A stretch of DNA of 64,000 nucleotides. Origin: an uncultured virus (IMG/VR IMGVR_UViG_3300027126_000148) (Duplodnaviria; Heunggongvirae; Uroviricota; Caudoviricetes). Both the position numbers and the translations under genes were made by a program. The DNA lies in IMG/VR virus record IMGVR_UViG_3300027126_000148. One strand, given 5' to 3'. Numbering within the stretch: the first letter of the stretch is position 1; every line of letters begins with the position of its first letter. Under the pieces are notes generated by a model. The model was not told the DNA's origin. It made no database searches and saw nothing but the letters and a program-made list of their open reading frames with translations. Of the stretch, positions 1 through 41,315 are shown piece after piece.

Positions 1-162
1 GTTTCTAGCATACTGCTTTGCAATGGTGGTTTTGCCAGACCCTCGCGGTGCAACAAAAAGAAAATTAGGAGAAATTTGACTCTTATCGTAAATATCAAGA
101 TAAAAATCTAACTTATTCTTAACTGCTTCCTGACCGATGATTGAATCAAAGCGATTGTTCAT
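1..162 (-). CDS. AAA+ ATPase, RuvB-like (N-terminal part, truncated by window edge)
   Basis: Not in ORF track; manual translation MNNRFDSIIGQEAVKNKL...FLFVAPRGSGKTTIAKQ shows the F-x-x-IIGQ start and Walker A typical of RuvB/clamp-loader-clade ATPases. Confidence 0.7.
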   Translation of the reverse strand, partial: MNNRFDSIIGQEAVKNKLDFYLDIYDKSQISPNFLFVAPRGSGKTTIAKQYARN

Positions 163-2072: not shown

Positions 2073-2399
2073 TCAACTTTTTTTTGGTTTTCTTTTGGGA
2101 GTTTTCTTCTTTTGGCTTCCGCTGACTTTTTCTAAAAACTTTTCACTTACTAATTCAACAAGTTTCAAACCTAAGAACCCCGCAATGAAAGCCACGCCAT
2201 TCTGATGTTTAACATTAACAATATTTAAAGTGTCCACCAATACAGGAGTCAAAAAGTTTGCGGTAGACATTCCTCCAACAAGAGACAAGACAACAGATTT
2301 GACATCGGTCTTATCATTTTTTGTAGCCATCAAAATAGAACCAAATAAACCACTAATCAAAAAACCCATTTGGATGCCCATTTTTTGTAATTGTTCCAT
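2073..2399 (-). CDS. Small multi-TM membrane protein, holin-like
   Basis: About three hydrophobic segments and a lysine-rich C-terminus. Confidence 0.55.
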   Translation of the reverse strand: MEQLQKMGIQMGFLISGLFGSILMATKNDKTDVKSVVLSLVGGMSTANFLTPVLVDTLNIVNVKHQNGVAFIAGFLGLKLVELVSEKFLEKVSGSQKKKTPKRKPKKS

Positions 2400-2400
2400 G

Positions 2401-3021
2401 TTACTTCTTTTTTCTCTTAAGGGGTTTCTTTTTCATGGCGGCGGGGTTATCGTGTTTAATTAAATACACTAAGAACAGCACTACTCCTGCCAGAGAATAA
2501 AGATATATGTTTAGTAGTTTTGTTTCATCATGAATTATCTTTTCTGAACTATTATTTATTAAATCTCTAAACTTTTCTTTGCTAAGATATATTTTCTTTT
2601 TATAGTCTAAATATTTGTCACTAAAGAATGCCTTACTATCCATCTTCTCAAAAGCAGGGCCTTCTACTTCTTTTGCTAATTCATTGCTTATATCTAAACC
2701 AACTCTAAATTCTTTTAACTCCTCTTGGGTTAATATTTTAGAAATAAAGACTTCGTTGTTGAAATAATTTTGTCTTTCTTTTAGATGAGCATTAAATTCC
2801 TCTAAAAACTTCTTATCTCCTGTAGTTGTATATGCAGCGCCTAGATATGTTAAATTGTCTGTAGATCTTCTAAGGTAGAGAGTTATGTCTCTACCAAACC
2901 TAAATCTTACAAATGCTTTTTCTATATCTTTAAGACTAGATAAAGCAAGAATAACAAATATAGCAGTTGGTAAAAGTACTGCTAATAAGTATTTCTTTAT
3001 ATTTGGTATTAAGTTGTCCAT
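2401..3021 (-). CDS. Two-TM membrane protein with chemoreceptor/kinase-like extracytoplasmic helical sensor domain, no signalling domain
   Basis: TM-LRRSTDNLTYLGAAYTTTGDKKFL...LTQEE...SNEL...FSDKY..K-TM, then a short basic tail. Confidence 0.5.
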   Translation of the reverse strand: MDNLIPNIKKYLLAVLLPTAIFVILALSSLKDIEKAFVRFRFGRDITLYLRRSTDNLTYLGAAYTTTGDKKFLEEFNAHLKERQNYFNNEVFISKILTQEELKEFRVGLDISNELAKEVEGPAFEKMDSKAFFSDKYLDYKKKIYLSKEKFRDLINNSSEKIIHDETKLLNIYLYSLAGVVLFLVYLIKHDNPAAMKKKPLKRKKK

Positions 3022-3030
3022 TTTAGCCTT

Positions 3031-3987
3031 TTATTTAATCCATTTTTGTTCTTTTAAGATGTCGTCAATAAGATCTTTTTCTTTGCTATCCATTTCTTTG
3101 TCAAAGCGTTTTAGCGCTTCTGTTACGGGATAAACTCTGTCTGGGAATTCTTTCTGCTTTTCTTTAAGCTCTTGAATTACATCTACAATTTTAACAAGGG
3201 GAGATTTAAATTCTTCAACTTTGTCTTTAGATATCAGATTAGACAATTCAAAAGCTTTAGGAGTTAGGGCTTTTATTATAGAAACAAACATTGACCCTAA
3301 CATGTTAAATATTGAAAAAGCTGCGGCAGCAGCAGGGTGAACTGTGGCTAGTAAGCGAAGAATAACGAACACTACAACAAATACAATTATTGTAGTTAAT
3401 GCGCTAATAACGAACTTCTTTAATCCCCAGAATACAGCATTAAGACCAAACATGCCGCTCATTGAATCTAATACTGCTTTATTTTGATCAGCTTCTTTGG
3501 CGACTTCTTTAGCTTTATCAGTGAGTTGCCAGAGTTGATCGTCATACTTCTGATTTAGCTCTGACTTTTCTTTTTGAAGTTTATTGATTATATCATCGCG
3601 TTGGGCGAGCATTTCTTCGCCTTTTCTGCGTTCTTCGACTAAGGCAGAGTTTAGTAAATCTACTGTCGCTTTAATTCTTTTTGTTTCGTCTATGTGAGGC
3701 GAGCCTACAATAGAAATGACTCTTTCGTTTAATTTTAAAGCTGTGTCTACTTGTACAGGAGCATTAGTGACTTGATTTAAAGAATGCTGAATGCCGACAG
3801 AAAGGCCAGAGGTTTGAATTCTCTTGCCTTTGTCGTTTTTTTCTATTTCTACAAGAGTGTTGTCTACCTTCTTCTCTTCTTTGGCGATAACTTTTTGATT
3901 ATCGTCTATTTGCTTAGAAGGTTTAATAGTTGAGAAGCATCCCGTTAGTATTAGCAGGATGAAAGGTAACAATAGGGGTTTCTTCAT
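3031..3987 (-). CDS. Lipoprotein with coiled coil and C-terminal TM segments
   Basis: Signal peptide with LTGC lipobox, coiled coil, hydrophobic block. Confidence 0.6.
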   Translation of the reverse strand: MKKPLLLPFILLILTGCFSTIKPSKQIDDNQKVIAKEEKKVDNTLVEIEKNDKGKRIQTSGLSVGIQHSLNQVTNAPVQVDTALKLNERVISIVGSPHIDETKRIKATVDLLNSALVEERRKGEEMLAQRDDIINKLQKEKSELNQKYDDQLWQLTDKAKEVAKEADQNKAVLDSMSGMFGLNAVFWGLKKFVISALTTIIVFVVVFVILRLLATVHPAAAAAFSIFNMLGSMFVSIIKALTPKAFELSNLISKDKVEEFKSPLVKIVDVIQELKEKQKEFPDRVYPVTEALKRFDKEMDSKEKDLIDDILKEQKWIK

Positions 3988-7313: not shown

Positions 7314-7954
7314 AGAGTGTCATAATACTTGGCAAAAAGAGCGAGGCCATTGTTTTTTCTTTCATTAAGTTGATTGGATTTTTCCATGTAACGCTTCCAA
7401 TCTTCCTTTTCTTCTATGGTCTTTTCAGAGCTAAAATCGAAAGCCTTACCTTTAAAAGAAAGACTCTCTGGGAATTCACACATTTTATCGCCATTAACAA
7501 TATACTCAAAAGCAAAAATCATTTCATCAAGAGCGGCTTCCATTTCTTTTACGCCTTTTTCTTCAGCGGCTGTCTGTTCCTCGCCCTCAAGAAAATGAAA
7601 ATTGCTTGGTAAAAAACAAACAGGAATTCCAACCTTTCCCTTTTCCTTAAAATACTTAAGGCGAGGCAAGGCAAAAAGAGCTATCGTATAACCTAGAGAG
7701 TAAACATCATCATCAGAAACTCCATAGCGAAATTTCTGATACTTGCATTTAATCCACCACTTAATATTCCCCGGCCAGTACTTAGCTTTCCATGCCAACC
7801 TGAAGGGAACAAGATCAAGCAAAAAGTCTACATACTTATTGTAAATATATCCATCATCAGAAAACATGCTTTCAAAAGCTTTTTCGTTTTCTTCTGCTAT
7901 CTTTCTTTGTCTAGCAATTTCTTCTGGAGAGCGAAAGTCAAATTCTGTTTGCAT
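7304..7954 (-). CDS. Conserved-type phage hypothetical protein
   Basis: LDEMIFAFE...GLALFAKYYDTLW pattern. Confidence 0.6.
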   Translation of the reverse strand: MQTEFDFRSPEEIARQRKIAEENEKAFESMFSDDGYIYNKYVDFLLDLVPFRLAWKAKYWPGNIKWWIKCKYQKFRYGVSDDDVYSLGYTIALFALPRLKYFKEKGKVGIPVCFLPSNFHFLEGEEQTAAEEKGVKEMEAALDEMIFAFEYIVNGDKMCEFPESLSFKGKAFDFSSEKTIEEKEDWKRYMEKSNQLNERKNNGLALFAKYYDTLWI

Positions 7955-8321
7955 TGTAATTATCTATGTATTTTTTAATGTTTTCAGCGCCAACTGGATT
8001 CATGGAATGAATTTCGTATGGTGGGTGAGCGATTTTTTGATCTTGACAAACCTCAACCAAATACTTAGCGCAATCGTAGCCAGTTTTTTCTTTATACTTA
8101 GAGTAGTCAATTTTATGGGTTTCTAGGATTATTTTAAGATCACGATAATGCTGCGCCCCGAGATCATGATCATAGCAGACAAAGGACGGAACGCCCTTTA
8201 TCTTTATTATATCCCTAAATTGAAAAAAGTCACGGGCAATTGTCCATTCATAGTTAGGGATATTTACCCAAGTAACATCGCTTGGATAACGAATGTCATC
8301 AATGAAAAGATAATAACTCAT
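7938..8321 (-). CDS. Cyclic-phosphate-processing receiver-like (cREC) domain protein
   Basis: LFIDDIR.P...YDHDLG...TGYDCAKYL...IHSMNPVG..NI motifs. Confidence 0.75.
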   Translation of the reverse strand: MSYYLFIDDIRYPSDVTWVNIPNYEWTIARDFFQFRDIIKIKGVPSFVCYDHDLGAQHYRDLKIILETHKIDYSKYKEKTGYDCAKYLVEVCQDQKIAHPPYEIHSMNPVGAENIKKYIDNYNANRI

Positions 8322-9064
8322 AAATCTAAATAAGATTTAACCTCAATCTTGCCATTAGTTACAGTGAGCCATTGCCTTAGAGAAGTGTCTATGCAGTAAT
8401 TTTCAGTCTTTGCATATTTTGCAACTCCTCCCTGTCTACGAGGTGTATGCCCAACAATTTGATTAAGCCCTTCAACAGGAGCGAACTCCTTGTCAAAGTC
8501 TAACCAAACGATTCCTCCTTTATGATAATGTCCTCCTCTAGCTCTGCCAACGGCATAAAACCAATGGTTGTGACCGCTAATTAAATTAATATTGGCTCGC
8601 TCTCTTTCTTTGATTAAGAAAAGATTAATGTCAGAATGATCTTTCGCTGTAGGGTCAATAAAATCAGGGCAAAGACCTGCGTGAGTGCAAAGATAGCCAT
8701 CTACCCAAGCAAACCAATCAAATTTTTTATAAATGTTAAGGCGATTTTCGCCAAATGTTTCAGATATAGTGTTATACTTCCTATGCTCGTATCCACTACA
8801 CATTACATAAGAATTATAAAAAAAGTAATGAAGATCATGATTACCAAACAATGTGTGATTATTTGGAGAAGTTAGATAACCCATTAAATACTCAGCAGTT
8901 TTTGCATAATGCTGAGTCTCGTCATAAATAAAACTATCAAACCAATCGCCAAGAACGAGATTAATATCTGCGCCCTCTGATTTAATAATTTTATCCAGCT
9001 TATCCACTTCATTATGGATATCTGAAATGATTAAGATTTTCTTACCTCCGCTTGAGATATTCAT
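8318..9064 (-). CDS. Calcineurin-like metallophosphoesterase
   Basis: DIH, GDWFD, GNHD, THAG, GHT motifs. Confidence 0.85.
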   Translation of the reverse strand: MNISSGGKKILIISDIHNEVDKLDKIIKSEGADINLVLGDWFDSFIYDETQHYAKTAEYLMGYLTSPNNHTLFGNHDLHYFFYNSYVMCSGYEHRKYNTISETFGENRLNIYKKFDWFAWVDGYLCTHAGLCPDFIDPTAKDHSDINLFLIKERERANINLISGHNHWFYAVGRARGGHYHKGGIVWLDFDKEFAPVEGLNQIVGHTPRRQGGVAKYAKTENYCIDTSLRQWLTVTNGKIEVKSYLDL

Positions 9065-9071
9065 TTAAAAT

Positions 9072-9146
9072 TGGAGCCACGCTACGGAATCGAACCGTAC
9101 TCTGAGGTTTACAAAACCCCTGCATCGCCAACTATGCTTGCGCGGC
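9072..9146 (-). tRNA. tRNA-Thr(UGU) with encoded CCA
   Basis: GCCGCGC-AA-GCAT AGTTGGCG ATGC-A-GGGGT TTTGTAA ACCTC-AGAG-TACGG TTCGATT CCGTA-GCGTGGC-T-CCA folds into a cloverleaf. Confidence 0.9.
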
Positions 9147-13451: not shown

Positions 13452-13937
13452 TTACACGCCGGTACTTCCGAATCCGCCCGTTCTGTCGCTTGAAGAAAGC
13501 TGGGTTACTTCTTGCCAATCAACAGCGTGATATTTTTCAATAATAAGTTGTGCGATTCTGTCTCCAGCTTTAATATTGAAATCAAAACTTGAACCAGCAA
13601 TATTTGGAGTAAGCCCCATCATACTTGCGAGATCAATACTTAGATTCATAAGGACAACTTTAACTTCTCCACGATAACTGGAATCTACAACTCCAGCAAG
13701 AACATCAATTCCGTTCTTGACTGCTAGACCGCTGCGAGGAGCAATTCTTGCATAATAACCTTGAGGAACTTCAATTGAAAGGCCAGTGCTAACCAAAGCG
13801 CGGCTCATCGGCTTGATCCTCACGTTTTCAGTTGCGTACAAGTCATAACCAGCATCTCCAGTCTTTTGGCGAGTCGGCGTGATGGCTGAGTTATTTAGTT
13901 TTACAAACTTAACTGGTATGATTGATTCTATATCCAT
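13452..13937 (-). CDS. dut: dUTPase (trimeric)
   Basis: AGYDL, RSGLA, GVVDSSYRGE, RIAQL, RTGGFGSTG motifs. Confidence 0.95.
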   Translation of the reverse strand: MDIESIIPVKFVKLNNSAITPTRQKTGDAGYDLYATENVRIKPMSRALVSTGLSIEVPQGYYARIAPRSGLAVKNGIDVLAGVVDSSYRGEVKVVLMNLSIDLASMMGLTPNIAGSSFDFNIKAGDRIAQLIIEKYHAVDWQEVTQLSSSDRTGGFGSTGV

Positions 13938-14386
13938 GATTGTAAATGAGATTTAATTTTAGAAAGGTTTTCTTCTTTTAGTTCTTGATAATGAATTTTA
14001 TAAAAATCAAAGATCTCTTTGAACTTGTTGCATTGATCATACTCTTTGATATAAAATACTCTTTGAATCTCATGAGAAACAATGTCTTTGGCGCAAGCGA
14101 AGCAAGGGGAGATTGTCAAGCATATACTCTCTCCTTCTCCTTTTCTTATCAAGGACAAAGCGTTAGTTTCTGCATGAATCATTATTTCTCGCTTTCTTGG
14201 ACGATTTTCCTCTTTCTTCATCCACTCTTTGACTGGGAAGCCTTTCTTGAGGCCATTGTACCCAGTTGAAATTATTCTTCCCTCTTTGTTTAGAATGCAA
14301 GCCCCAACTTTGGTGTGAGGGTCTTCGCTTCTAGAGGAAGCGGCAAGAGCCATCATGCATCCATATTCGTGCCAAGAAAGTCTCAT
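13928..14386 (-). CDS. dCMP deaminase
   Basis: RSEDPHTKVGAC, GYNG, HAETNA, PCFAC; start moved to MRLSW at 14386. Confidence 0.9.
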   Translation of the reverse strand: MRLSWHEYGCMMALAASSRSEDPHTKVGACILNKEGRIISTGYNGLKKGFPVKEWMKKEENRPRKREIMIHAETNALSLIRKGEGESICLTISPCFACAKDIVSHEIQRVFYIKEYDQCNKFKEIFDFYKIHYQELKEENLSKIKSHLQSWI

Positions 14387-14463
14387 GGACAATATTCTCG
14401 CGCAGCAAAAGCAAAAAATCAAGTTTATTTGGAGCTTTTTCTGGCATTCTTGTATGATTAAGT

Positions 14464-14880
14464 ATGACAATCGCAGATGCTTCAGTTAAATTATATCAAT
14501 GGTATTTTCAGAATGATAGTTTCTGTGAGAATGATTTTACCAAACTACTTACCATTTCCGAGAATCCAGAATCTGAAAGGGCTTGCGTCTTGTGTACTCT
14601 TGAAGAGTTTGAGAAGAACGGAATCGTAAAAAAGGCAACGTTTAAAAATAATAATTATTGGATTCTTTCTAAGAAGTTTGATGCTTACGAGCAGAGCGTC
14701 ACCATCTCCCCTAAAACTTCTTTCATTATCGCAGAAATTATTAATTCTTATTGCGCTCTCATTGAAAACGATTCTGAAAGATGCAACCCAGCTTCAATCA
14801 GCGAGAAGGACATCAAGAACCTTTTGGTCATCTTCAGCGAGTTGCGCGAAAAAACTTTTGACAAAACCAAGTCCCCATGA
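14464..14880 (+). CDS. Hypothetical protein, first gene of the plus-strand arm
   Basis: ORF with TATGAT just before the ATG. Confidence 0.6.
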   Translation: MTIADASVKLYQWYFQNDSFCENDFTKLLTISENPESERACVLCTLEEFEKNGIVKKATFKNNNYWILSKKFDAYEQSVTISPKTSFIIAEIINSYCALIENDSERCNPASISEKDIKNLLVIFSELREKTFDKTKSP

Positions 14881-14887
14881 CTAGGAT
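14858..14887 (+). promoter_or_regulatory. sigma70-like promoter TTGACA-N18-TAGGAT
   Basis: Perfect -35; predicted start about 14893-14894, at the 5' end of the structured region. Confidence 0.55.
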
Positions 14888-14892
14888 GAGTT

Positions 14893-15320
14893 AGTTCTTT
14901 GTCTGGGTGAACAGCCTACTGGGGATATCCCAGTTTGAACGCATCAGAGACATCAGGCCCGTAAAAAGACCCTAGTCAACTGGATCTAAGAAATCCAACG
15001 CCATTTCGGGAAAAGGCGACGTTCCGCAAGGAGAAGACTTTGAAAAAGCTGAAACCTCATTTTTCTCAAAAGAAAAAGCTGGCAGTTCGTCCTAAGAAAA
15101 ATCCCACCCGCAAAGACAAAGAACTTAAACAAAGAGTTAGTCATTAGCTAGGCTTTCTTAAGAAGGCTGAAAATCTGATAAACAGACTGCGAAGGATTGA
15201 AATGGGTAACTCTTGATTATTTTGAAATCTCTAACTCTTTAGAGATGACAAGCCTTTTCCTATTTTAACTCAAAGAAAAATCATAAAGCTGGCAGTTCCT
15301 TTTACAAACCAGCCTTTCTT
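14893..15320 (+). ncRNA. Candidate structured non-coding RNA of unknown class
   Basis: No ORF of 60 aa or more; 12-bp perfect closing stem 14893-14904/15114-15125, several internal hairpins, second domain 15132-15214, upstream promoter. Confidence 0.55.
15075..15298 (+). repeat. 14-nt direct repeat AAAGCTGGCAGTTC (15075-15088 and 15285-15298)
   Basis: Seen directly; both copies are preceded by CTCAAA(A)GAAAAA. Confidence 0.8.
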
Positions 15321-15337
15321 AAATACTATTACTTACT

Positions 15338-15970
15338 ATGTCTAACCTGTGTTTAGGAATTGCTGGTGCAGCTACTGTTGGTAAGGATACTTACTATAAA
15401 TTACTAAAGGAAGTTTGTTTAGAAGACTTTGGAGTGAACGTAGTAAGGTTTGCTCTAGCTGACATTTTAAAATCTGACTTGCGAGATTTTATTATTAATA
15501 AGCATGGAGTTGATATTATAAATTGCTCTTCTGAAGATAAAAACAAAGTGAGATTTGAACTTGTTGAACATGCAAGAAAAATGAGACAAGAAACAAATGG
15601 AAGATATTGGATTTCAAAATTAGATGAAGTGATTGAAGAATACAAGAAGAGTGAAATTTTTAAAAGCTCTGATATTTTTTGTGTAACTGATATTAGACAC
15701 TTCGAATATCCTGCTGACGAAGTGGTCTGGCTAAAGGAAGAAAATAAAGGGATTTTAATTTATGTTGAAAAATTTTTTGATGACGGTTCAATTTGCAATC
15801 CTGCGAATAATGATGAGAGAAGAAACGATCCTCTTCTTAGAGAACATTCTGATTATATTGTTCGCTGGAAGCATGCAGATCCTGAAAAATATTTGAAGTC
15901 TTTGGTTAAAAAGACTGTTGACATCTTCGTAAAAGAAGGTAAACTTTTCGCACATGATAGACTCAACTGA
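15338..15970 (+). CDS. Deoxynucleoside monophosphate kinase-like P-loop protein
   Basis: GIAGAATVGKDT, FALAD.LK, VTDIR..YP.DE. Confidence 0.75.
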   Translation: MSNLCLGIAGAATVGKDTYYKLLKEVCLEDFGVNVVRFALADILKSDLRDFIINKHGVDIINCSSEDKNKVRFELVEHARKMRQETNGRYWISKLDEVIEEYKKSEIFKSSDIFCVTDIRHFEYPADEVVWLKEENKGILIYVEKFFDDGSICNPANNDERRNDPLLREHSDYIVRWKHADPEKYLKSLVKKTVDIFVKEGKLFAHDRLN

Positions 15971-16541
15971 CAACGAACTTGTAACGAAGGTAAAACTTCA
16001 ACAATGCAACCAATCATTAAAAACTCTTATAGAAAGGCACTCGCCTCTCTGTTTTGATATTTTTAAGAAATACAACAAGATTCTTCAAGAAAGAGGAATA
16101 AGTCCAGAAGATCTTGTAAGTGAAAAAGATTACATTATCTATAAATGTACTCTTAATTTTGACGAGACACAAAATAGCAAGTTCTCGACTTGGCTCGCTA
16201 ACCATGTTAAATACAAATGTTTAACAAACATTACTAAACACAAGTGGGCGATTTCTCTTGATGATGAAAATCAGAAAAACATAGCAGCAAATTTATGCCA
16301 AGAGATTAATGATTTTGAAGAAAAGAAGGAGTTTGTTTTTAATCTTCTTTCTCAGATGAAAGACAAGAGGCTGGAGAAAATAATCATGCTGAGATACTAT
16401 GGGGACAAATCTTCTCGTAAATGGAAGAATATATCCAAAGAACTTGGAGTCACATATCAAACAGCAATCACTTTACACAAGAAAGCTTTAGAGTTTCTAA
16501 AGACGAAAATCGAGAGCAAAGAAATGCAAGATTTTGTGTAA
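15954..16541 (+). CDS. Phage sigma70-family RNA polymerase sigma factor
   Basis: Region 2-like FDETQNSKFSTWL and region 4 HTH WKNISKELGVTYQ...LHKKAL. Confidence 0.75.
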   Translation: MIDSTDNELVTKVKLQQCNQSLKTLIERHSPLCFDIFKKYNKILQERGISPEDLVSEKDYIIYKCTLNFDETQNSKFSTWLANHVKYKCLTNITKHKWAISLDDENQKNIAANLCQEINDFEEKKEFVFNLLSQMKDKRLEKIIMLRYYGDKSSRKWKNISKELGVTYQTAITLHKKALEFLKTKIESKEMQDFV

Positions 16542-20990: not shown

Positions 20991-21833
20991 ATGAAGGTGT
21001 ATCTTTGTGGGATAACACAAAATCAGCTTAAAAATATAGATGAATTAACTAAAAATTGCTATCAAATTTTCGATGGCTTGATTTTTGTTGATGCGGGATC
21101 TACAGACGGAACGAAGGAACTTTTAGAAGAGAGAAAAGGTTGCGGTCAAATCATTTATCGCAAATGGACCAATGATCACGACCTTCAAATGAACGAATTC
21201 TTACGCCAAGGGCCAATGAAAATTGGCGACTGGTTTGTCATTAGAGATTCTAGAGAAAGATTTAATACTGAATGGGTTTCTAACATTAAAGATCTAATTT
21301 CTAGAGCAAAACTATCAGGCATCCGATCAATGTATAACTACAACAAAGGATTTGCTTTTGAATATTATGATGATATGCATTTTAATTCTTCTCCTCATTG
21401 GGGCTTAATTGGAGCGAGAAGTAAAGCGATAGATTTAAGTCACTATTTTGATGAAAATAAAAAAGAACATACTTGGAGACAAAAAGAAGAAAAAGGAGAC
21501 CCAGAAAGAGATGATTCTTATTATATCGATCATCATTTTAAATACTATTATATATACGGCAGAAGCAATCATCTTCTTTTAGGTAGAGAAAATGATCAAG
21601 AAGGGTTTTGGAAAGCGGAAACTAGTCGAGTGAATTTCAGATTATATTGCAACTCAATAGGCTTAGATTTTACACCAGAATCTTTTTTGAATTACGCAAA
21701 AAACGAAGGGATGAAAGATATCAAGTTTAAAGAATTCATCAACGCAGAAGATATCCTTAAAAAATTTTATAGGAAACATATACTTAAAGAATCTTTAGAA
21801 AGTATAAAACAAAACAATTTTATTCTAACATGA
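20991..21833 (+). CDS. GT2-like glycosyltransferase
   Basis: VDAGSTDGT, DSRE. Confidence 0.7.
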   Translation: MKVYLCGITQNQLKNIDELTKNCYQIFDGLIFVDAGSTDGTKELLEERKGCGQIIYRKWTNDHDLQMNEFLRQGPMKIGDWFVIRDSRERFNTEWVSNIKDLISRAKLSGIRSMYNYNKGFAFEYYDDMHFNSSPHWGLIGARSKAIDLSHYFDENKKEHTWRQKEEKGDPERDDSYYIDHHFKYYYIYGRSNHLLLGRENDQEGFWKAETSRVNFRLYCNSIGLDFTPESFLNYAKNEGMKDIKFKEFINAEDILKKFYRKHILKESLESIKQNNFILT

Positions 21834-22591
21834 AATTTTCTTCTTACTCTTCTGCGTTTAATCTCATTAAGATGGGATTCGACTGGCAAAACTCTATACT
21901 AAACTACTCTCAGTTTATGGATGAGGTTGTGCTTGCTATTAATAAGTCAGAAGACGGCACGTTTGAAATCGTCAGTAAATTTCTAAAAGATAAAAACATT
22001 GTTAACGTTATTCTTTGTCAATGTTCTTTCGACTACTCTGACTTAGCTTTTGATGGTAAAATCAAGAATTTCGCTCTCCAGCATACATCAGGAAATATTA
22101 AAATATCGTGTGATATAGATGAGAGGTTTCCTTTGCATCAAAAAGATTTATGGCGCAAAGCGGCAAACTACTTGCTTTCTCAAGCAGAAGCTTCTGCCTA
22201 TTTAATTCCAAGCATTAATCTATGTGGTGATATTTATCATTATAAAGATATAGGTTATAAATGGTACATGCACAAAGATGGGTTGTATCGCGGCATTGTA
22301 AATTTTGCCAAGAAACAAGACGGTAAAATAGATACAGACAAAAGTGACACTTGTGAGTTAATAGATGCTTCTGGAAATCTTGTTAAGACTTTAATGTTTG
22401 ATAATTCAATTGAAAGTCTTAGAGAAGGCCAAACTCCTTATGTATTCCATTACTGGGCAGTAGACAAGGAACAAAGAATTAAACAAAATGAATTCTGGCA
22501 ACCAGTTTGGTCCAATAGAGCAGGAAGAGAAATAAATACAAAAACCGATTTTTCAAAAATAGAAACAAAGAAACACGAACTAAAAATATAA
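21830..22591 (+). CDS. GT2-like glycosyltransferase
   Basis: SEDGT, KNFAL, DIDE. Confidence 0.7.
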   Translation: MKFSSYSSAFNLIKMGFDWQNSILNYSQFMDEVVLAINKSEDGTFEIVSKFLKDKNIVNVILCQCSFDYSDLAFDGKIKNFALQHTSGNIKISCDIDERFPLHQKDLWRKAANYLLSQAEASAYLIPSINLCGDIYHYKDIGYKWYMHKDGLYRGIVNFAKKQDGKIDTDKSDTCELIDASGNLVKTLMFDNSIESLREGQTPYVFHYWAVDKEQRIKQNEFWQPVWSNRAGREINTKTDFSKIETKKHELKI

Positions 22592-22593
22592 TT

Positions 22594-23316
22594 ATGTTTA
22601 ATATCGTTTTTTTAACAAGCACAAAACAGCACTATGGTTTAACTGAGGTAGACATAGTTACTTTAAAAGATTTGTTTAAAAAGTCTCAGCTAGTTAGTAA
22701 AGTCGATAAATTAGCACATATAAAAATAATCCCCGGAGATGAAAAAATAGCCCTTGAAAAGGCAGAGTTTTTTAAATCTTTAGGGTTCGAAGTTATTCAA
22801 ACTACAGAATATTGGGAAAGCGATCATGAAAGCCAATACTTAGGTTTAGCCAAAGACATGGCTAAGTGCTATAACCATCCAATGATTAAAAAGAGTCAAT
22901 TTACTTTTCATTTAGAAAATGATTGGATATTTCACACTGACAAACTAGATTCTTTATTTGATAATTCTATCTACATTCTTGAAAATAATCCTAATCTTGT
23001 GTATCATAGATATTCAAGAGTAGATCAGCCAGACATTGTACAAAGGCTTTCTGCGGAAAAGAAAGACGGATTTTATTCAGTTAAACGAGAATGGAGCTTT
23101 AATCCAGCAATGCTTAGATCTAGAGATATGATTTATATTTCTAATTTTGTTCTTAAAAATTTTAAACAAATTCACCCTCATGTAGAAATGGCTTATGAAT
23201 TAGCCGCAAAATATTTATTAAATCAAGAAGATATTTTTAGCTTCACTGACAACGGTATCGTCGAACACATTGGGTGGCAAAAAGAATACAATAATTTCAT
23301 AAACAAAAACAAATAA
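22594..23316 (+). CDS. GT-A-like glycosyltransferase
   Basis: FHLENDW, WSFNP, VEHIG. Confidence 0.55.
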   Translation: MFNIVFLTSTKQHYGLTEVDIVTLKDLFKKSQLVSKVDKLAHIKIIPGDEKIALEKAEFFKSLGFEVIQTTEYWESDHESQYLGLAKDMAKCYNHPMIKKSQFTFHLENDWIFHTDKLDSLFDNSIYILENNPNLVYHRYSRVDQPDIVQRLSAEKKDGFYSVKREWSFNPAMLRSRDMIYISNFVLKNFKQIHPHVEMAYELAAKYLLNQEDIFSFTDNGIVEHIGWQKEYNNFINKNK

Positions 23317-23324
23317 TTAAATAT

Positions 23325-23951
23325 ATGTGGTTTGAAAAAGGAATAAATAATCCAGATCATGATTTTCATGACATTCAACAAATGGCGGTGGACTCCGCTT
23401 TAGATGGAGACTTTTTAGTGGAAGTTGGGTCTTTTGTGGGAGAGTCCATGCATTCTTTGATCGATAAAGGTAAAAAAACTAATAAAAAATTAAAGTATAT
23501 AACTGTTGATTATTTTGATATAGATTTAATGTGTAAAGACGATGATGAAGCAGAAAAGTATCATCACGAAATGGACAAAATAATGGGAAACGGAATCACT
23601 CCAAACGAATGGATTAGAAAAAATGGCCCAAGATGCATGCTGGTTGAATATTTTAATTATCTTCACTTAACTAAAAAAAATAACGACATGCATTCTGTTA
23701 TTGTTTCAAAAAGCTATGAAGCTGCTGATTATTTCAAAGATGGATCTGTGCATTTTTGTTTTATAGACGCTGGACATTCATATGGAAACGTCACCAAAGA
23801 TTTAAATGCATGGTTTCCAAAAATGAAATATAACGGCCTTTTGTGCGGACACGATTGGCATGGAGAGGGAGTCAGAAAAGCTGTAATAGATTTCGCAGAA
23901 AAGAAGAATATAAAAATTTATACTACTGCTTCTAGTTGGATTTTAAAATAA
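23325..23951 (+). CDS. Class I SAM methyltransferase (Methyltransf_24-like)
   Basis: VEVGSFVGES, FIDAGHSY, GHDW...GV..AV. Confidence 0.8.
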   Translation: MWFEKGINNPDHDFHDIQQMAVDSALDGDFLVEVGSFVGESMHSLIDKGKKTNKKLKYITVDYFDIDLMCKDDDEAEKYHHEMDKIMGNGITPNEWIRKNGPRCMLVEYFNYLHLTKKNNDMHSVIVSKSYEAADYFKDGSVHFCFIDAGHSYGNVTKDLNAWFPKMKYNGLLCGHDWHGEGVRKAVIDFAEKKNIKIYTTASSWILK

Positions 23952-24772
23952 TGAATAAAAGAATATTAGGAAATCAAGGGCAATTTGGAGATCTTTGTAT
24001 GAATACGGTTGCTTTTAAAAAGATAAAAGAATTGTATCCAAATGATTTTCTTATCATGTCTATTAATAAAAAATACTCTGAGATAGCTCCTATTTTTTTT
24101 AATAATCCTTATATTGATTCTTTAGTTATTTGGGATCAATACGATAATTGGCCCAATGAAAAAGATGCGCTAACTATAAAAAAATACAAAAACTCAATAA
24201 TTAATCACCCAATGTCTTCGCATACTATCGACAGATGGTATCTAAGGTCTCATCAAACAGAAGAATGCGCTTTCATGAATGGTTACTATGGAGAAAGGTT
24301 CCCAAATGGAGAACAATGTATTTTAAATAAATGGTTCGACGTACAGAAAAACGATAAACTAATATCCTTTGCTCCATTTGCTGGATTTTATAATCCAAAT
24401 AATAGAAAAAAACTTTCTATTAGTAATGCTCAAAAAATTGTTGACTTAATAAAAGCTAATGGATATGATATTATACAACTAGGAGGAAAAGATGAGCCAC
24501 ATTTAGAAGGAGCAATAAAAATTGATTGTTCTTTTTTTGAATCTATTAAAATTGGTCTTTCTAGTAAATTTTATATAGGAACTGATACCGGAATGACTTG
24601 GATACTCTCAGCTTATTCTAAACCGACTATTGGATTATATTCTTATGAGTTTTATGGAAAAGAATACGTCAAAAACATTCAACCAGTTAATCCAAATAGC
24701 ATTTATTTAAGCGAAAATAATGTTAACGATATTACAATAGATCAAATAGAAGAAAAATTCAAAAATTTATAA
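23951..24772 (+). CDS. GT9-like (ADP-heptose transferase family) glycosyltransferase
   Basis: GQFGDL, NPYID, IQLGG, IGTDTG; start at ATG 23951. Confidence 0.7.
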   Translation: MNKRILGNQGQFGDLCMNTVAFKKIKELYPNDFLIMSINKKYSEIAPIFFNNPYIDSLVIWDQYDNWPNEKDALTIKKYKNSIINHPMSSHTIDRWYLRSHQTEECAFMNGYYGERFPNGEQCILNKWFDVQKNDKLISFAPFAGFYNPNNRKKLSISNAQKIVDLIKANGYDIIQLGGKDEPHLEGAIKIDCSFFESIKIGLSSKFYIGTDTGMTWILSAYSKPTIGLYSYEFYGKEYVKNIQPVNPNSIYLSENNVNDITIDQIEEKFKNL

Positions 24773-24773
24773 T

Positions 24774-25373
24774 ATGGGTAATTTACAAACATTTAATCTA
24801 GGATTTTTTAAATCTAAAATAAACGCAACAGCGTTTTTTGAAACGGGCCTTGGAAGTGGAAGTGGTCTTGTATACGCTTCTGCTTTTAATTTTGATATTT
24901 TAATTTCTACAGAAATAGATGAGAATGCGATAGTTAGATTTAAGAATTCTTATTCTGAGGGATTATCAAAAACTAGTAAAATTCATATTTTTAAAGGAAA
25001 CAGTGCTGAGATTTTGGACAACGCTTTACCCCTTATCGACGCTCACAAATCTTGCATTTTTTGGTTAGACGCTCATTTTCCGGGAGAAACAAGCGGATTT
25101 TCTTATGAGCATGAAAAAAACATTTCTGTAAGACTGCCGCTAGAACAAGAAATAGAAGCGATTCTAAAGCATCGGGCGAATAAAAAAGATATTATCATTA
25201 TCGATGATATTAGAATTTATGAAAAGAGAAATTACGAAGCAAAATGTCTTGACGATATTGGATTAAGTCATCTCGCTAAATATGAGAATCAAATCAATCA
25301 ACTTCTAGAAAAAAAGTTTGATATTTATAAGTTCGATATAGATACCGGATTTGCAGTTTGTCTACCTAAATAA
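24774..25373 (+). CDS. SAM methyltransferase-like protein
   Basis: FETGLGSG, GNS, FWLDAH, IIDD. Confidence 0.65.
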   Translation: MGNLQTFNLGFFKSKINATAFFETGLGSGSGLVYASAFNFDILISTEIDENAIVRFKNSYSEGLSKTSKIHIFKGNSAEILDNALPLIDAHKSCIFWLDAHFPGETSGFSYEHEKNISVRLPLEQEIEAILKHRANKKDIIIIDDIRIYEKRNYEAKCLDDIGLSHLAKYENQINQLLEKKFDIYKFDIDTGFAVCLPK

Positions 25374-25374
25374 T

Positions 25375-26052
25375 ATGAGAAAATTTGGAATACGAATGGG
25401 CGGAAATGAATCCGACATAGAAAATACCATATCGACATATCTTTCTAAAACAGAAGATAAAGAATTTAAATATCTAGAAATTGGCGCTGCTGGCACAGTT
25501 TCTATGAAGTCTATTTATGAAATTATTTCAGAAAATGTAAAGCATAATAATTGGCAAGTATACGGACTTGATTTACCAAACGGATGGAGTCTAGATTGGA
25601 ATGAAATTCAAAAATTCAATCATCCTCTTTCTATTTTTATAAATGGCAACAAAAGCATGTCTAGATTTGACGATTTTTCAAAAGCGTCATTATGGCTTGA
25701 AAGCGAACCAAGAAAATGGATTTCTAATTTAAAAGATGAATCTATAGATATATGTTTCATCGATGGCTGTCATGGCGCACCATGTGTAATCGCAGATTTT
25801 AAAGCAGTACAATCAAAAATAAAGAAAGACGGCATTGTATTTTTTCATGACGCAGGAGAACCTGAACAAGGTACAGATTGGCAAGGGCACTGTAATGAGT
25901 ATATTAATGTCAGGAAAGCTGTTTACGATTTAGGATTGCTGAACACTAGCGATAAAAAACTTGAACATTGGGAATTCTTATTTGAGACAGAAGGCTCAAG
26001 GAAAATCGGCAAAGATGGAAATAGCTGCGTTTTTATAAAAAAAAATAAATAA
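25375..26052 (+). CDS. Class I SAM methyltransferase (Methyltransf_24-like)
   Basis: YLEIG, FIDGCH, FHD; start ATG 25375. Confidence 0.7.
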   Translation: MRKFGIRMGGNESDIENTISTYLSKTEDKEFKYLEIGAAGTVSMKSIYEIISENVKHNNWQVYGLDLPNGWSLDWNEIQKFNHPLSIFINGNKSMSRFDDFSKASLWLESEPRKWISNLKDESIDICFIDGCHGAPCVIADFKAVQSKIKKDGIVFFHDAGEPEQGTDWQGHCNEYINVRKAVYDLGLLNTSDKKLEHWEFLFETEGSRKIGKDGNSCVFIKKNK

Positions 26053-26610
26053 ATGAACCAATATCTCAATCATTTTTTAAATTCCAAAGGGAATAGAGAT
26101 TTAATATTTCAAGATGTATTAAACTCTTTTTCTAGTAAACCTATTTCAGTTTTAGAAATTGGAGCGGCGAGAAGTTTAGACTCATATTCAAGAATGGCAG
26201 ATGGATGGAGTTCTTTTCATTATTATAACTATATAAAAAAGAATGGCGGGTCTTTAACCATCTGCGATATTAGCGAAATAGCTCTTTCTAATTGTAAAAC
26301 TTTGTTTGAAAATCTAATCTCTGATGTAGATATAAAATTTGTATTAGGAGATGGAGGTCTTTTGATAAATGAAAAATACGATCTTATTTATTTAGATGGA
26401 GGAGACGACCCTGAAGACATGGTAAATCAATTATCTAAAATTAATTTAAATTCTCAAAAAGTTCTATGTGATGATTTCCACACAAAGGGCTCTTTAGCGA
26501 GGAGCATATTCCCAAATGTTACTCTTTATAAATGGCAAGGGCACGAACATGAAATGGCTTTTTATAGACACAACTATAAAGGACTTATAATTTGCAACAC
26601 TATACAATAA
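26053..26610 (+). CDS. Class I SAM methyltransferase-like protein
   Basis: VLEIGAAR, DLIYLDG, CDD. Confidence 0.65.
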   Translation: MNQYLNHFLNSKGNRDLIFQDVLNSFSSKPISVLEIGAARSLDSYSRMADGWSSFHYYNYIKKNGGSLTICDISEIALSNCKTLFENLISDVDIKFVLGDGGLLINEKYDLIYLDGGDDPEDMVNQLSKINLNSQKVLCDDFHTKGSLARSIFPNVTLYKWQGHEHEMAFYRHNYKGLIICNTIQ

Positions 26611-26613
26611 TAA

Positions 26614-27468
26614 ATGAAAATTGCTAGTTTTGGTGCAGAACATTTTTTGGGACAATTACCAAGAATAATGGAAGGTTGGAAACTTTTAGGACACGAATGT
26701 TCTAAAAACAAAGCTGACCTTATATACTCTAATGATCCTTCTGGATATGATGAAGCAATAAAGTATAAAGAAGAAAATGGCGGTATTTTAATATTGAATG
26801 TTTTGGATATACCATTTCATCTTAAAGAGATAAATACAATAATTAATACAATAAAGCCAAAGCTTCAAAAAGCAGACATAATAACCTCAATCAGCAAAAC
26901 AACCTCTCTTTCAATTAAAAAATATATTGGGCTTAATTCTTATATAATATACAATCCAGTAAAAGACGTTTCTTTTTTAAATTTAAGAAAAGAAAAATTT
27001 TTTATGGCGGTTGGAAGACTAGCAGATCCAAATAAAAGATTTGCTTTAGCAGTAAATTCAATCAATATTTTTAATAAAGAAATTGATATTTTTGGTTCAG
27101 ACAGTCTTGTTATAAGACACCCAATAATTAAAGGACACGGAATAGTTTCTGATGAAAAATTAAATTATAATTATAATATTACAAAATTTTATTTAGCCAC
27201 TTCTTACAATGAAGGGCTTTGTCTTCCAATGATAGAATCTTTAATCTGCGGATGCATTCCAATCACATGTTTAGACATGACAACGGCAAGCGAATTTATT
27301 CCTGAAGAATTTTTAACCGAGCCAAACCAAGAAAAAATAGCTCAAAAAATTAGTTCAATTAATCAAGACTATAACAATTATCAAAAAATAGCTCTTTCTT
27401 TTGGGAAAAAATATTCTAAAACATTTAACAAAACGACAATCGCGCAAAATATATTAAATCTACTATGA
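26614..27468 (+). CDS. GT4-like glycosyltransferase
   Basis: VGR...KR, SYNEGLCLPMIES..CGC. Confidence 0.75.
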   Translation: MKIASFGAEHFLGQLPRIMEGWKLLGHECSKNKADLIYSNDPSGYDEAIKYKEENGGILILNVLDIPFHLKEINTIINTIKPKLQKADIITSISKTTSLSIKKYIGLNSYIIYNPVKDVSFLNLRKEKFFMAVGRLADPNKRFALAVNSINIFNKEIDIFGSDSLVIRHPIIKGHGIVSDEKLNYNYNITKFYLATSYNEGLCLPMIESLICGCIPITCLDMTTASEFIPEEFLTEPNQEKIAQKISSINQDYNNYQKIALSFGKKYSKTFNKTTIAQNILNLL

Positions 27469-28226
27469 AAATTGGTATTTTAGGATGCGGCCATAACTGC
27501 ATCGATGATTTGCAGAATAGACTAGCACCTTGGTTTGAAGCAGCAAAAGAATGCGAGATTATCTTTTCTTTTGTTTCGTGCATGTTTAAAGAATACAAAG
27601 ATTTAAATATAAGCATTGACAATTCAAAGACTGTATCATATTTTAATGATTTAAAGAACAGAGGCTTGATTCAGCATTTCAATGCCCCCAATGAAGCTCT
27701 TGTTGAATCTGATGCTAGAAATTTAGCTTTATTTCCCCTATTATCCGACAATGTTGACTGCGTTTGGCTATTAGATCTTAGCGACGAATACTATTCTGTA
27801 AAAGAAATAAAAGCAATAATCTCTTATATATCTAATGATAAGTTTAATCAGTGGTATAGTATTAATTTTAAAAACTACATCTTAGATGGCAAGCAATGGA
27901 TAGACGACTTTTGTCCACCAAGAATTTTCTTTAACTCTAGAGGGCTAAAGCTTGTTAAGTTTTACTGGGATAATGATATTATTTACAGTAATGGAAGAGA
28001 TGAGCTTAACTATAAATATTTAGTAAATCAAAACATTCCAAAACATTATGCTCATGTCAGACACATGACTTGGCTGCATTCAAATGGAAAATTAAAAGTA
28101 GAATACCAAAACAAACACTTTGGTCATTGCTCTTACAAATGGAATTACGAAACTAACAAACTAGAAATAGACAAAAGCTTTTTTGTAAAAAATAATATTC
28201 CCCAACCTATAATACATACAGAATAA
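27465..28226 (+). CDS. GT-A-like glycosyltransferase
   Basis: ARNLAL, WLLDLSDE, PPRIF. Confidence 0.55.
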   Translation: MKIGILGCGHNCIDDLQNRLAPWFEAAKECEIIFSFVSCMFKEYKDLNISIDNSKTVSYFNDLKNRGLIQHFNAPNEALVESDARNLALFPLLSDNVDCVWLLDLSDEYYSVKEIKAIISYISNDKFNQWYSINFKNYILDGKQWIDDFCPPRIFFNSRGLKLVKFYWDNDIIYSNGRDELNYKYLVNQNIPKHYAHVRHMTWLHSNGKLKVEYQNKHFGHCSYKWNYETNKLEIDKSFFVKNNIPQPIIHTE

Positions 28227-29278
28227 TGAAAAATGTAATTATCACAGGAATTACTGGGCAAGATGGGTCTTACATGGTTGATCACCTTATTGCAAATACT
28301 AACTTTAATATATTTGGCGCAGTGAGAAGACTGTCTAAGCCTAACTATTCTAATTTTTCTAAGCATCTTTGTAATAGTCGATTTAAGCTTGTCACTTTTG
28401 ATCTTTCTGATTCTCAATCAATTGACAATGCTGTTAGAGAAATTAAACCTGATTATTTTATTAATTTCGCCGCGCAATCTTTTGTTGGTTCAAGCTGGCA
28501 AATTCCTGAACAAACATTTGACGCTGGAGCTATGGGTGTGCTAAGATGTCTTGAAGCCGTGCGTAAGTACTCTCCAAGTTGTCGATTTTATAACGCTGGA
28601 AGCTCTGAAGAGTTTGGAGACGTAAAATATGCGCCTCAAGATGAGAAACATCCTCTTTCTCCAAGGTCTCCCTATGGAGCGGCAAAAGCTGCGGCAAGGC
28701 ATTTAGTTAAAGTATATCGTGAATCTTATAATCTTTTTGCAATTCAAGGTTATCTTTTTAATCATGAATCACCAAGAAGAGGAGAAGAGTTTGTTACTCG
28801 AAAAATTACTAAAGGAGTAGCCAGAATAATAAAGGCTATTAAAAGAGGAGAATCTTTTGATCCTATTTGTTTGGGAAATGTTGATGCAAAAAGAGACTGG
28901 AGTCACGCAATTGATTTCGTAGATGGAGTCTGGAAAATGCTCAATCAAGAAAAACCAAATGAATACGTTTTATCAAGCAATGAAACTCATACTATTAGAG
29001 AATTTATTGAACTAGCATTTAAAGAAGTTGGTATAGAAGGTTTTTGGCATGGACAAGGAACAAATGAAGAATATTCTTTATCAACTGAATATGCCATACG
29101 CAACGATGCAGCGTCTTCTGTTTTGATTCGAATAGATCCAAAATTTTTCCGTCCAGCAGAGGTAGAACTACTTCTTGGAGACTCTTCCAAGGCTCGCAAA
29201 GAATTAGACTGGAATCCAAAGTACTCTTTTCATCAATTAGTAAAAGACATGGTAGCATCTGATCTTAATCAATTTTAA
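28226..29278 (+). CDS. gmd: GDP-mannose 4,6-dehydratase
   Basis: ITGITGQDGSY, AAQSFV..SW, SPRSPYGAAK, FNHESPRRG.EFVTRKIT, FRPAEV. Confidence 0.93.
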   Translation: MKNVIITGITGQDGSYMVDHLIANTNFNIFGAVRRLSKPNYSNFSKHLCNSRFKLVTFDLSDSQSIDNAVREIKPDYFINFAAQSFVGSSWQIPEQTFDAGAMGVLRCLEAVRKYSPSCRFYNAGSSEEFGDVKYAPQDEKHPLSPRSPYGAAKAAARHLVKVYRESYNLFAIQGYLFNHESPRRGEEFVTRKITKGVARIIKAIKRGESFDPICLGNVDAKRDWSHAIDFVDGVWKMLNQEKPNEYVLSSNETHTIREFIELAFKEVGIEGFWHGQGTNEEYSLSTEYAIRNDAASSVLIRIDPKFFRPAEVELLLGDSSKARKELDWNPKYSFHQLVKDMVASDLNQF

Positions 29279-41314: not shown

Positions 41315-41315
41315 T

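Follow-up and report, generated by a model that had tools for sequence, protein, structure and literature searches.

What occupies the one long stretch without an open reading frame (ORF) in an otherwise tightly packed phage genome? The question is raised by positions 14881-15337 of a 64,000-nucleotide piece of DNA (hereafter the window) from an uncultured virus of the Caudoviricetes, IMG/VR record IMGVR_UViG_3300027126_000148, where 457 nt separate the ORF at 14464-14880 from that at 15338-15970. An earlier note, made from the sequence without database searches, had called this the only long ORF-free stretch and had proposed that it encodes a 230-430-nt phage non-coding RNA (ncRNA) of an undescribed class. 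The gap is indeed the largest between called ORFs in the window, the next two measuring 335 and 292 nt, and the RNA gene within it is almost certainly real. Approximately 406 nt long, encoded on the + strand and placed directly before an operon for a phage sigma factor, it belongs to a family in which a short sequence, referred to here as the tag, is present in two exact copies that change together from lineage to lineage.

A conserved, covarying RNA on the + strand

The RNA is conserved far better than its surroundings. Protein-anchored scans of IMG/VR returned 15 same-clade contigs in which the gap retains 88.7-99.8% nucleotide identity, a range that applies to 20 IMG/VR loci. In sliding bins, identity across 14914-15063 is 0.93-0.99, compared with 0.66-0.91 in coding bins, and at the protein level the flanking gene products of the same relatives, a kinase and a 138-aa protein, are 72-95% and 76-98% identical, respectively. 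A 21-mer scan of metagenomes added 19 further loci, all at least 87% identical. For more distant comparison, 80 of 254 loci with sigma homologues were fetched, 65 of them distant, and the RNA was present in four of these 65, using an nhmmer profile and a covariance model of the core (R1); in these four the sigma factor, kinase and upstream protein are just 32-37% identical to those of the window. An invariant 18-mer, CAGGCCCGTAAAAAGACC, matched 34 IMG/VR loci, and a two-block pattern matched 40, including six new, more diverged contigs with R1 expectation values (E) of 1.6e-15 to 6.7e-30. The family set comprises 31 distinct sequences on 40 IMG/VR contigs from uncultured aquatic phages, and individual loci of relatives are given local labels (L161, L244 and so on) where they need to be told apart.

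Bacterial homologues were considered and rejected, as the 22 matches of the 18-mer in bacterial and archaeal genomes are close to the number expected by chance (~17, by arithmetic). Ten of the 22 are from Flavobacteriaceae (Maribacter-like; including L208, L218 and L222), with R1 E of 1e-6 to 0.8 and no Rfam match at these loci. They are regarded as false positives, because the 18-mer lies there inside a protein-coding gene (checked in L218, ORF 2348-3487) and the score is carried by the shared 18-mer.

Covariation provides the second line of evidence. RNAalifold predicted 119 pairs from 18 close sequences, seven of them compensatory, and for domain 1 of the RNA in 19 diverse sequences, 15 of 41 predicted pairs were compensatory. 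A hand-set structure consisting of helices P2, P3 and P4 and a candidate pseudoknot, examined in 19 sequences, has 99.5% of its 418 cells paired and nine of 22 pairs changing on both sides; its covariation score is 0.345, compared with 0.193 in shuffles (0/500) and 0.115 or less with the partner strand slid. When 25 sequences were aligned to the model, 97.8% of cells were paired, 12 of 15 pairs were compensatory and the score was 0.664 against 0.303 (0/500), a count biased towards the model to which this alignment was fitted. The strand was determined from wobble pairs: 48 cells are G-U and three are A-C, and 97.8% of cells pair on the + strand as opposed to 85.7% on the - strand, so that the RNA is read from the + strand.

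Three points tell against this structural account or limit it. Deep covariation is found mostly between a few clades, and the shuffle controls therefore overstate independence. At P4, the data are matched equally well if the 3′ strand pairs instead with GCCU at 14913-14916. Finally, when the sequence is folded alone, its minimum free energy (MFE) does not surpass that of dinucleotide shuffles (z -1.19 on the + strand, -1.30 on the - strand), an outcome that the earlier note had itself listed as counting against its proposal. It is conservation and covariation, not folding energy, that lift the region above chance, and this comparative evidence outweighs the energy result. Domain 1 is also A-rich and richer in G+C than the surrounding genome. 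The parts of the RNA and its promoter, all on the + strand, are as follows.

14858-14887, +: promoter P1, with -35 TTGACA (14858-14863), an 18-nt spacer and -10 TAGGAT (14882-14887); 10 of 12 consensus matches
14893-15298, +: the RNA, ~406 nt from its predicted start through the last base of tag 2, placed by conservation, covariation, strand bias and RNA-library contigs
14893-15125, +: domain 1, closed by the long-range helix P1 (14893-14909 with 15109-15125; 4-nt GCAA/GUGA bulge)
14918-14935, +: hairpin P2, ACUGGG/CCCAGU; six of six pairs change on both sides (25 sequences), 97.9% of cells paired
14954-14971, +: invariant core 1, CAGGCCCGUAAAAAGACC; identical in 34 IMG/VR loci
14981-14997, +: hairpin P3, UGGAU/AUCCA; five of five pairs change on both sides, 99.2% paired
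14999-15018, +: hairpin P4, CGCC/GGCG, with the invariant loop AUUUCGGGAAAA (core 2); one pair compensatory, two one-sided, 96% paired
15022-15033, +: hairpin P5, UUCC-GCAA-GGAG, with a GNRA loop; invariant in the close clade
15047-15088, +: unit 1, an outer AGCUG/CAGUU and CC/GG around P6, its 3′ side ending in tag 1
15060-15077, +: hairpin P6, UUUUUCU-CAAA-AGAAAAA, inside unit 1
15132-15214, +: domain 2, closed by P7 (AAGAGUUA 15132-15139 with UAACUCUU 15207-15214) and containing hairpins P8 (15151-15168) and P9 (15174-15186) and the conserved core CUGCGAAGGAUUGAAAUGGGUA (15187-15208)
15227-15246, +: hairpin AUCUCUAA-CUCU-UUAGAGAU, with a variable loop; clade-specific, other hairpins standing here in other clades
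15263-15298, +: unit 2, the semi-conserved motif AACUCAAAGAAAAA, a short linker and tag 2

The long-range helix P1 corresponds to a 12-bp stem in the earlier note. The perfect inverted repeat exists (14893-14904 with 15114-15125, 209 nt between the arms) and P1 is supported by compensation, with G-C replaced by A-U at pair 62/279 in five of 18 close relatives and both strands replaced yet complementary in L244, L249, L253 and L255 (duplexes read by eye); the 12-mer match alone is not beyond chance, as 18 of 100 shuffles contain two or more such matches. An energy comparison of cognate and non-cognate P1 strands does not discriminate (-12.7 vs -11.7 kcal/mol, 158 of 398 non-cognate duplexes being as low), because the 5′ strand AGUUCUUUGU is nearly invariant. 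P7 behaves differently: rebuilt with different sequences in every lineage, it gives a mean of -9.4 kcal/mol for cognate duplexes (n = 13) and -5.9 ± 1.9 for non-cognate ones (n = 128; three as low). The proposed second-domain stem AAGAGTTA/TAACTCTT, which is found in the MFE or consensus folds, is thereby strengthened.

The smaller elements vary in how far they are kept. The hairpins ACTGGG/CCCAGT, TGGAT/ATCCA, CGCC/GGCG, TCC-GCAA-GGA and TTTTTCT/AGAAAAA, all picked out from the single sequence, recur in MFE or consensus folds. In the second clade P5 is replaced by a different, GAAA-capped hairpin with the covarying stems AAGUA/UACUU, GAGUA/UACUC, GGGUA/UACCC and GAGCA/UGCUC (read from the alignment), and other lineages have UCCUC/GAGGA, CCC/GGG, CCCC/GGGG or UUCCU/AGGAA in place of P6. 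Compensatory changes in P8 and P9 occur at pairs 317/326, 318/325 and 336/348. A pseudoknot is possible between CCCGUAAA of core 1 and the P4 loop UUUCGGG, where the seven proposed pairs never vary. Three suggestions did not hold up in relatives: a GCTGG/CCAGC hairpin is lost in seven of 18 close relatives, and the sequences of both an AGTC/GACT junction closer and an alternative pairing of GGGTGAAC with GTTCGTCC are not kept in diverged ones.

The promoter TTGACA-N18-TAGGAT named in the earlier note is present, and its predicted start is at about 14893-14895. In 26 of the 31 distinct sequences a sigma70-type promoter matching TTGnnn-16..19-nAnnnT stops 5-16 nt short of the conserved 5′ end, and one relative has a -10 element, TAGTAT, nearer to consensus. 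Part of the stretch is contained in 16 RNA runs among RNA sequence datasets, and four riverine RNA libraries yielded assembled contigs spanning 14912-15511, 14922-15420, 14915-15369 and 14577-15202, three of the four bridging tag 2 and the kinase start. Such contigs carry no information on strand, ends or level and could stem from DNA carry-over; they show only that the region is present in RNA libraries and is continuous with the kinase gene. Contig depth in the gap and its flanks, uncovered stretches and the similar contig starts (14912, 14915 and 14922, one with adapter letters) were likewise considered and set aside as unusable for level or ends. Transcripts may run on at the 3′ side into the kinase gene.

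Taken with the G-U bias, conservation above that of the flanks and covariation, both of which were found in relatives, support the proposal of an undescribed class, as do the Rfam searches. Rfam 15 at gathering threshold returned for the whole window only a tRNA at 9075-9146 and nothing in the gap, and a permissive scan of 14700-15500 gave six matches, the best with E 0.69, at 12-21 bits against gathering thresholds of 39-86. None of the Rfam 15 models for 6S, GOLLD, ROOL, OLE, raiA, HEARO, RNase P, tmRNA, SRP, riboswitches or self-cleaving ribozymes matches the RNA, and no published description was found in a literature search at the level of titles and abstracts. Absent from Rfam 15, the family is classified here as a new one within the large structured phage RNAs of unknown function.

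Twin tags that change in concert

The two tag copies lie one in each half of the RNA.

15075-15088, +: tag 1, AAAGCUGGCAGUUC, an exact twin of tag 2, on the 3′ side of the P6 arm in domain 1
15285-15298, +: tag 2, AAAGCUGGCAGUUC, which closes the RNA

In all 31 distinct sequences there is one exact repeat of 13-18 nt at a spacing of 180-212 nt, and it exists in eight lineage-specific variants, so that both copies have changed in concert. A repeat of at least 13 nt at such a spacing arose in five of 2000 shuffles of the window's extract. The window's tag, AAAGCTGGCAGTTC, has only these two copies in 64 kb, allowing up to two mismatches. Each copy is preceded by a small hairpin or by the purine-rich motif CYCARRGRAAAA, and the likeness of the two units reaches beyond the tag into this preceding purine-rich motif. 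The tags themselves form at best mini-hairpins of 3-4 bp. L249 and L253, which have no winged-helix gene upstream, carry a very different, purine-only tag.

A scan for the dual-tag pattern recovered 15 true loci and six false ones (L050, L051, L053, L056, L059 and L063), the latter being tail-fibre-like tandem repeats in which AGCTGGCAGTT occurs twice by chance.

Several explanations of the tags were tried and rejected. Pairing in cis with an anti-tag reaches -12.3 kcal/mol in the second clade (matched by three of 500 shuffles) and -5.3 in the window clade (176 of 500), with no cognate specificity, and no recurrent site complementary to the tag was found across nine representatives. A regulon or promoter motif does not fit, since the window contains only two tag copies, the 7- and 8-mers of the tag are not enriched, and the 109-kb L244 contig also has two copies. 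Uniform palindromy fails as well: two of eight variants are clearly self-complementary and four of eight no more so than shuffles, with dyad symmetry reached by 5 of 1000 shuffles for the L244 tag and 14 of 1000 for that of L238. Nor is tag 2 a fixed-distance promoter element, being followed after 18 or 24 nt by a start codon (L238 and L255), by a tRNA (L244) or by a terminator (L249). It is tentatively suggested, with rather more doubt than confidence, that one and the same partner docks at both tags.

The sigma operon and competing explanations

The neighbours of the RNA that bear on its role are the following.

14464-14880, +: upstream neighbour, encoding a 138-aa protein with a predicted winged-helix fold
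15301-15329, +: promoter-like site P2, TTTACA-N17-TACTAT; nine of 12 matches, both hexamers kept in the close clade
15338-16541, +: downstream operon of a dNMP-kinase-like gene (15338-15970) and a phage sigma factor gene (15954-16541), from Pfam and PHROG scans

The gene order of winged-helix-like gene, RNA, optional kinase and sigma factor is kept across the deep split in the family, and wherever the flank reaches far enough the RNA is co-oriented with, and lies directly before, the kinase-sigma or sigma gene. The sigma gene is found downstream of the RNA in the window clade, in L161, L165, L166 and L168, and in L187, L246, L249, L253 and L255; L246, L249, L253 and L255 lack the kinase and have sigma immediately after the RNA. 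Between tag 2 and the following start codon there are just 18 nt in L238 and 24 nt in L255, too few for a promoter, and L249 has a terminator-like hairpin between RNA and sigma, 6 nt before the sigma ATG region.

A model of the following kind would accommodate these arrangements. A host-type (sigma70-like) early promoter would transcribe a two-domain RNA of ~410 nt, starting exactly at the 5′ strand of helix P1. As a leader or co-transcribed ncRNA, this would form a regulatory module of the sigma operon and set whether and when RNA polymerase and ribosomes reach the sigma gene, for example through processive antitermination or through control of read-through, processing or stability, while the two lineage-specific tags would dock one specificity partner, either protein or nucleic acid. 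Such a module is favoured by the constant co-orientation, the lineages without room for a promoter, the terminator interposed in L249, and the RNA-library contigs that continue into the next gene. Judged from gene order and spacing, whether the RNA acts on the sigma operon could go either way, and the explanation as a whole, a regulatory RNA or leader with twin docking sites, has about an even chance of being correct.

Partial precedents exist for a module of this type. Lambdoid nut sites, which have terminators downstream, consist of boxA and a phage-specific boxB hairpin bound by an N-like arginine-rich protein, are present in two copies per phage and match the phage's own factor, and HK022 put, EAR and the long rpoS leader are cis-acting antitermination or leader RNAs. 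By analogy, the RNA described here may be one of these promoter-proximal elements that act on the transcript, or on the polymerase, entering regulatory genes, and the semi-conserved motif that precedes each tag recalls the nut arrangement of a conserved motif followed by a phage-specific element, in two copies. Unlike nut, both tag copies are on one transcript, 180-212 nt apart and inside a large conserved fold, and the tags form mini-hairpins of 3-4 bp at best; the likeness is one of analogy only, with no sequence similarity claimed, and no N-like protein was identified, although no search aimed at one was made.

A number of observations weigh against a regulatory module of the sigma operon. 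The flanks of L238 and L244 end before any sigma gene could appear. L244 has a tRNA gene and a separate promoter interposed between RNA and kinase; the tRNA-Gly(GCC), at 1656-1731 of that locus, begins about a dozen bases after tag 2, and its processing by RNase P would fix where the RNA ends on the 3′ side. L246 has its own promoter before sigma, and promoter-like sites follow tag 2 in the window, where P2 would place the start of the kinase mRNA at or just before the ATG at 15338 (no Shine-Dalgarno sequence is visible), and in the second clade, where the hexamers are TGTTAGATT/TGTTATAAT. Given these intervening tRNA and promoter sequences, the RNA need not be physically part of the sigma mRNA. 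The searches for cis pairing and for motifs found no partner of the tag, and it is conserved synteny alone that suggests a regulatory link between RNA and sigma factor.

In several lineages, then, a tRNA, a terminator or a promoter separates the RNA from the next gene, which makes a stand-alone, stable ncRNA acting in trans the main rival, although an unlikely one. Its position beside sigma would reflect shared early timing only, and it might serve as a decoy or scaffold for host RNA polymerase, sigma70, Hfq-like proteins or a defence factor, or be a self-assembling RNA. Consistent with this, the RNA has a strong promoter of its own, and, like many stable RNAs, it has its 5′ end base-paired to a strand further downstream (P1); the L249 unit runs from promoter to terminator, RNase P processing at the following tRNA would release the RNA in L244, and tag 2 is followed by promoter-like sites in the window, in the second clade and in L246. 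The nearly invariant cores, in phages with proteins of ~35% identity, suggest a conserved host target, and RNA-RNA contacts could be made through the tags, four of whose eight variants show partial self-complementarity. Against this reading, adjacency and co-orientation with the kinase-sigma or sigma gene are kept wherever the flank is visible, L238 and L255 lack promoter room, RNA-library contigs continue into the kinase gene, and the RNA bears no likeness to the 6S, GOLLD, ROOL, OLE or raiA models.

A riboswitch-like leader is improbable. Its invariant cores would be a ligand pocket, for instance for a nucleotide-related metabolite, and the tag units its expression platform. The extreme conservation of junctions and loops, combined with covarying stems, is the usual signature of an aptamer, the RNA lies directly upstream of a nucleotide kinase in most members, and tag 2 of the second clade can pair with an upstream strand in competition with a hairpin. 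That alternative pairing lacks cognate specificity, however, and in the window clade (-5.3 kcal/mol) it is equalled in 176 of 500 shuffles. In addition, ~410 nt in two domains is large for a riboswitch, four of the six diverged members have no kinase, and no Rfam riboswitch model matches.

Elements acting at the level of DNA are more doubtful still. Here the tags would be operators for the winged-helix protein or iteron-like origin sites, with transcription being secondary or supplying an R-loop primer; the structured DNA origin that the earlier note offered as its alternative is of this kind. Gene orientation flips at ~14-15 kb, where the leftward set ends with a dCMP deaminase gene (13928-14470) and the rightward set begins with the 138-aa ORF (14464-14880), and the cumulative GC skew has its minimum there. 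To this extent an origin may lie at the locus as a whole, although the skew switch is confounded with the change in gene strand. The 138-aa protein has no Pfam or PHROG match, and its structural model (predicted local distance difference test score, pLDDT, 86.9) has a helix-strand-helix-helix-hairpin arrangement plus two helices, for which the top Foldseek rows are PadR, BlaI, MecI, MarR, Fur and TubR-type winged-helix regulators. In L161, L165, L187, L238, L244, L246 and L255 the gene immediately before the RNA encodes a homologue with 33-38% identity; L249 and L253 lack this gene, and a leftward ORF there adjoins the RNA promoter. Synteny of this protein in most lineages, the very different, purine-only tag where it is missing, and the dyad symmetry of the L244 and L238 tags could all be taken to indicate operators. 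Against this, the Foldseek matches are weak (best E 0.03, none at or below 0.001), tags persist in L249 and L253 without the gene, and four of eight tags are no more self-complementary than shuffles. Above all, a DNA element cannot explain 48 G-U against three A-C cells, which with 12 of 15 compensatory pairs signifies selection on a + strand RNA fold.

The least probable of the worked-out alternatives, and a very improbable one, is an RNA-guided device in which tag 1, as an RNA guide, pairs with the template strand at tag 2 ~200 bp downstream and recruits the phage sigma factor or RNA polymerase, or anchors an R-loop. It would be a Cas-free analogue of the dCas12f-gRNA-sigmaE systems, for which PMC13472631 describes guides of 14-16 nt, a transcription start at a fixed distance of 46 bp, and self-targeting category III loci. 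Both comprise a structured RNA genetically linked to an alternative sigma factor, and in both a short lineage-specific RNA segment, 13-18 nt in the present family, recurs exactly upstream of the sigma operon (PMC13472631). Tag length and layout are close to those of the guides and of the category III loci, the RNA segment and the DNA site before the sigma operon are identical in 31 of 31 sequences through eight variants, no RNA partner in cis explains this identity, and the tag is not a regulon motif. The differences are considerable. The 64-kb window holds no Cas12f-like gene, and no TnpB, IscB or other known RNA-guided protein, among 57 ORFs searched with Pfam, 32 of them also with PHROGs; tag 1 is internal as opposed to a 3′ end, the scaffold is ~4 times longer, and the carrier is a phage as opposed to a Bacteroidota chromosome. 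Unit similarity extends past the tag into the purine-rich motif, tag 2 is transcribed too, according to the RNA-library contigs, and a fixed-distance promoter does not fit, given that tag 2 is followed only after 18-60 nt or more by a start codon and that a tRNA (L244) or terminator (L249) can come in between. The broader notion that the twin tags form a programmable address, whose copies in the RNA and at the entrance of the sigma operon must match, is likewise improbable.

A mobile element such as a miniature inverted-repeat transposable element was rejected, as the 12-nt P1 arm is found only at the two P1 arms in 64 kb (up to one mismatch) and the site is syntenic in all relatives, and small protein genes were rejected since the candidate ORFs at 14986-15144 (-) and 15040-15147 (+) differ by 1-2 nt in length among relatives and are frame-shifted.

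Genomic setting and place among large phage RNAs

The window is a piece of phage genome with a G+C content of 35%, encoding a DnaE-like polymerase, helicase, primase, UvsX-like recombinase, ribonucleotide reductase, many glycosyltransferases and tail genes. A collection of phage genomes contains no DNA match to the window and, by tblastn, no match to its sigma protein, and the polymerase is only 25-31% identical to its nearest records, which indicates a phage without a cultured relative in that collection.

Certain other features of the window were recorded. At the point where gene orientation changes, the deaminase ORF (TTG start at 14470) and the 138-aa ORF (ATG at 14464) overlap at their starts, which implies either divergent promoters inside coding sequence or a deaminase start further in. 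Two deaminase-like genes are present in all, this one (13928-14470, -) and a weaker match at 1292-1714 (-; E 2.5e-4) that adjoins an HNH endonuclease gene at 687-1289. At 7938-9064 (-), the gene for a cyclic-phosphate processing receiver domain protein (PF20274, E 1.9e-17) adjoins one for a calcineurin-like phosphoesterase (PF00149), just before the tRNA at 9075-9146 and a UvdE-like endonuclease gene; the two neighbours could be a nucleotide-signal or RNA-end processing pair. The replicase is split at 34840-38791 (+) into genes for a PHP-domain protein, an RNase T-like exonuclease and the DnaE-like polymerase. An unusually long run of glycosyltransferase genes, with two class-24 methyltransferase-like proteins and a nucleotide-sugar epimerase, extends over 20991-29278 and 39407-42488 (+) and could serve modification of DNA or of surface glycans.

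Related sigma genes in five other phages also follow ORF-free gaps of 450-610 nt (L105 941-1410, L110 1064-1516, L136 1339-1819, L145 1320-1789 and L155 1264-1875). None of these gaps matches the profile or the covariance model of the RNA, and they may contain unrelated or very distant RNAs.

The nearest counterparts in kind are the GOLLD, ROOL, OLE and raiA-motif RNAs, large ornate RNAs of bacteria and phages (PMC12286853 and PMC5737381 are among the literature on them). They resemble the present RNA in being large, multi-helix and phage-carried, with conserved cores and covarying stems, found by comparative means and of unknown function. This RNA is smaller, at ~410 nt, matches no Rfam 15 model, and has its fixed place before a phage sigma gene and, as a rule, not by tRNA clusters. 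On the sequences compared, its concerted twin tags, tied to a sigma operon and unreported for the others, would be what is new about it.

Sigma factors encoded by phages bring about the transition from early to later gene expression, and an RNA of 410 nt that stands before a sigma gene and is conserved far better than the surrounding proteins points to RNA-based control of that transition. If the tags did prove to be an address, the outcome would be a Cas-independent, sequence-addressed switch, operating by RNA-guided recruitment, R-loop anchoring or strand exchange, and a structured RNA coupled to a phage sigma factor would represent a new wiring of RNA-guided transcription control. Irrespective of mechanism, the RNA is a well-supported addition to the few large structured phage RNAs for which no function is known, and its two identical tags, with eight jointly changed variants, provide an experimental handle on both partner and mechanism.

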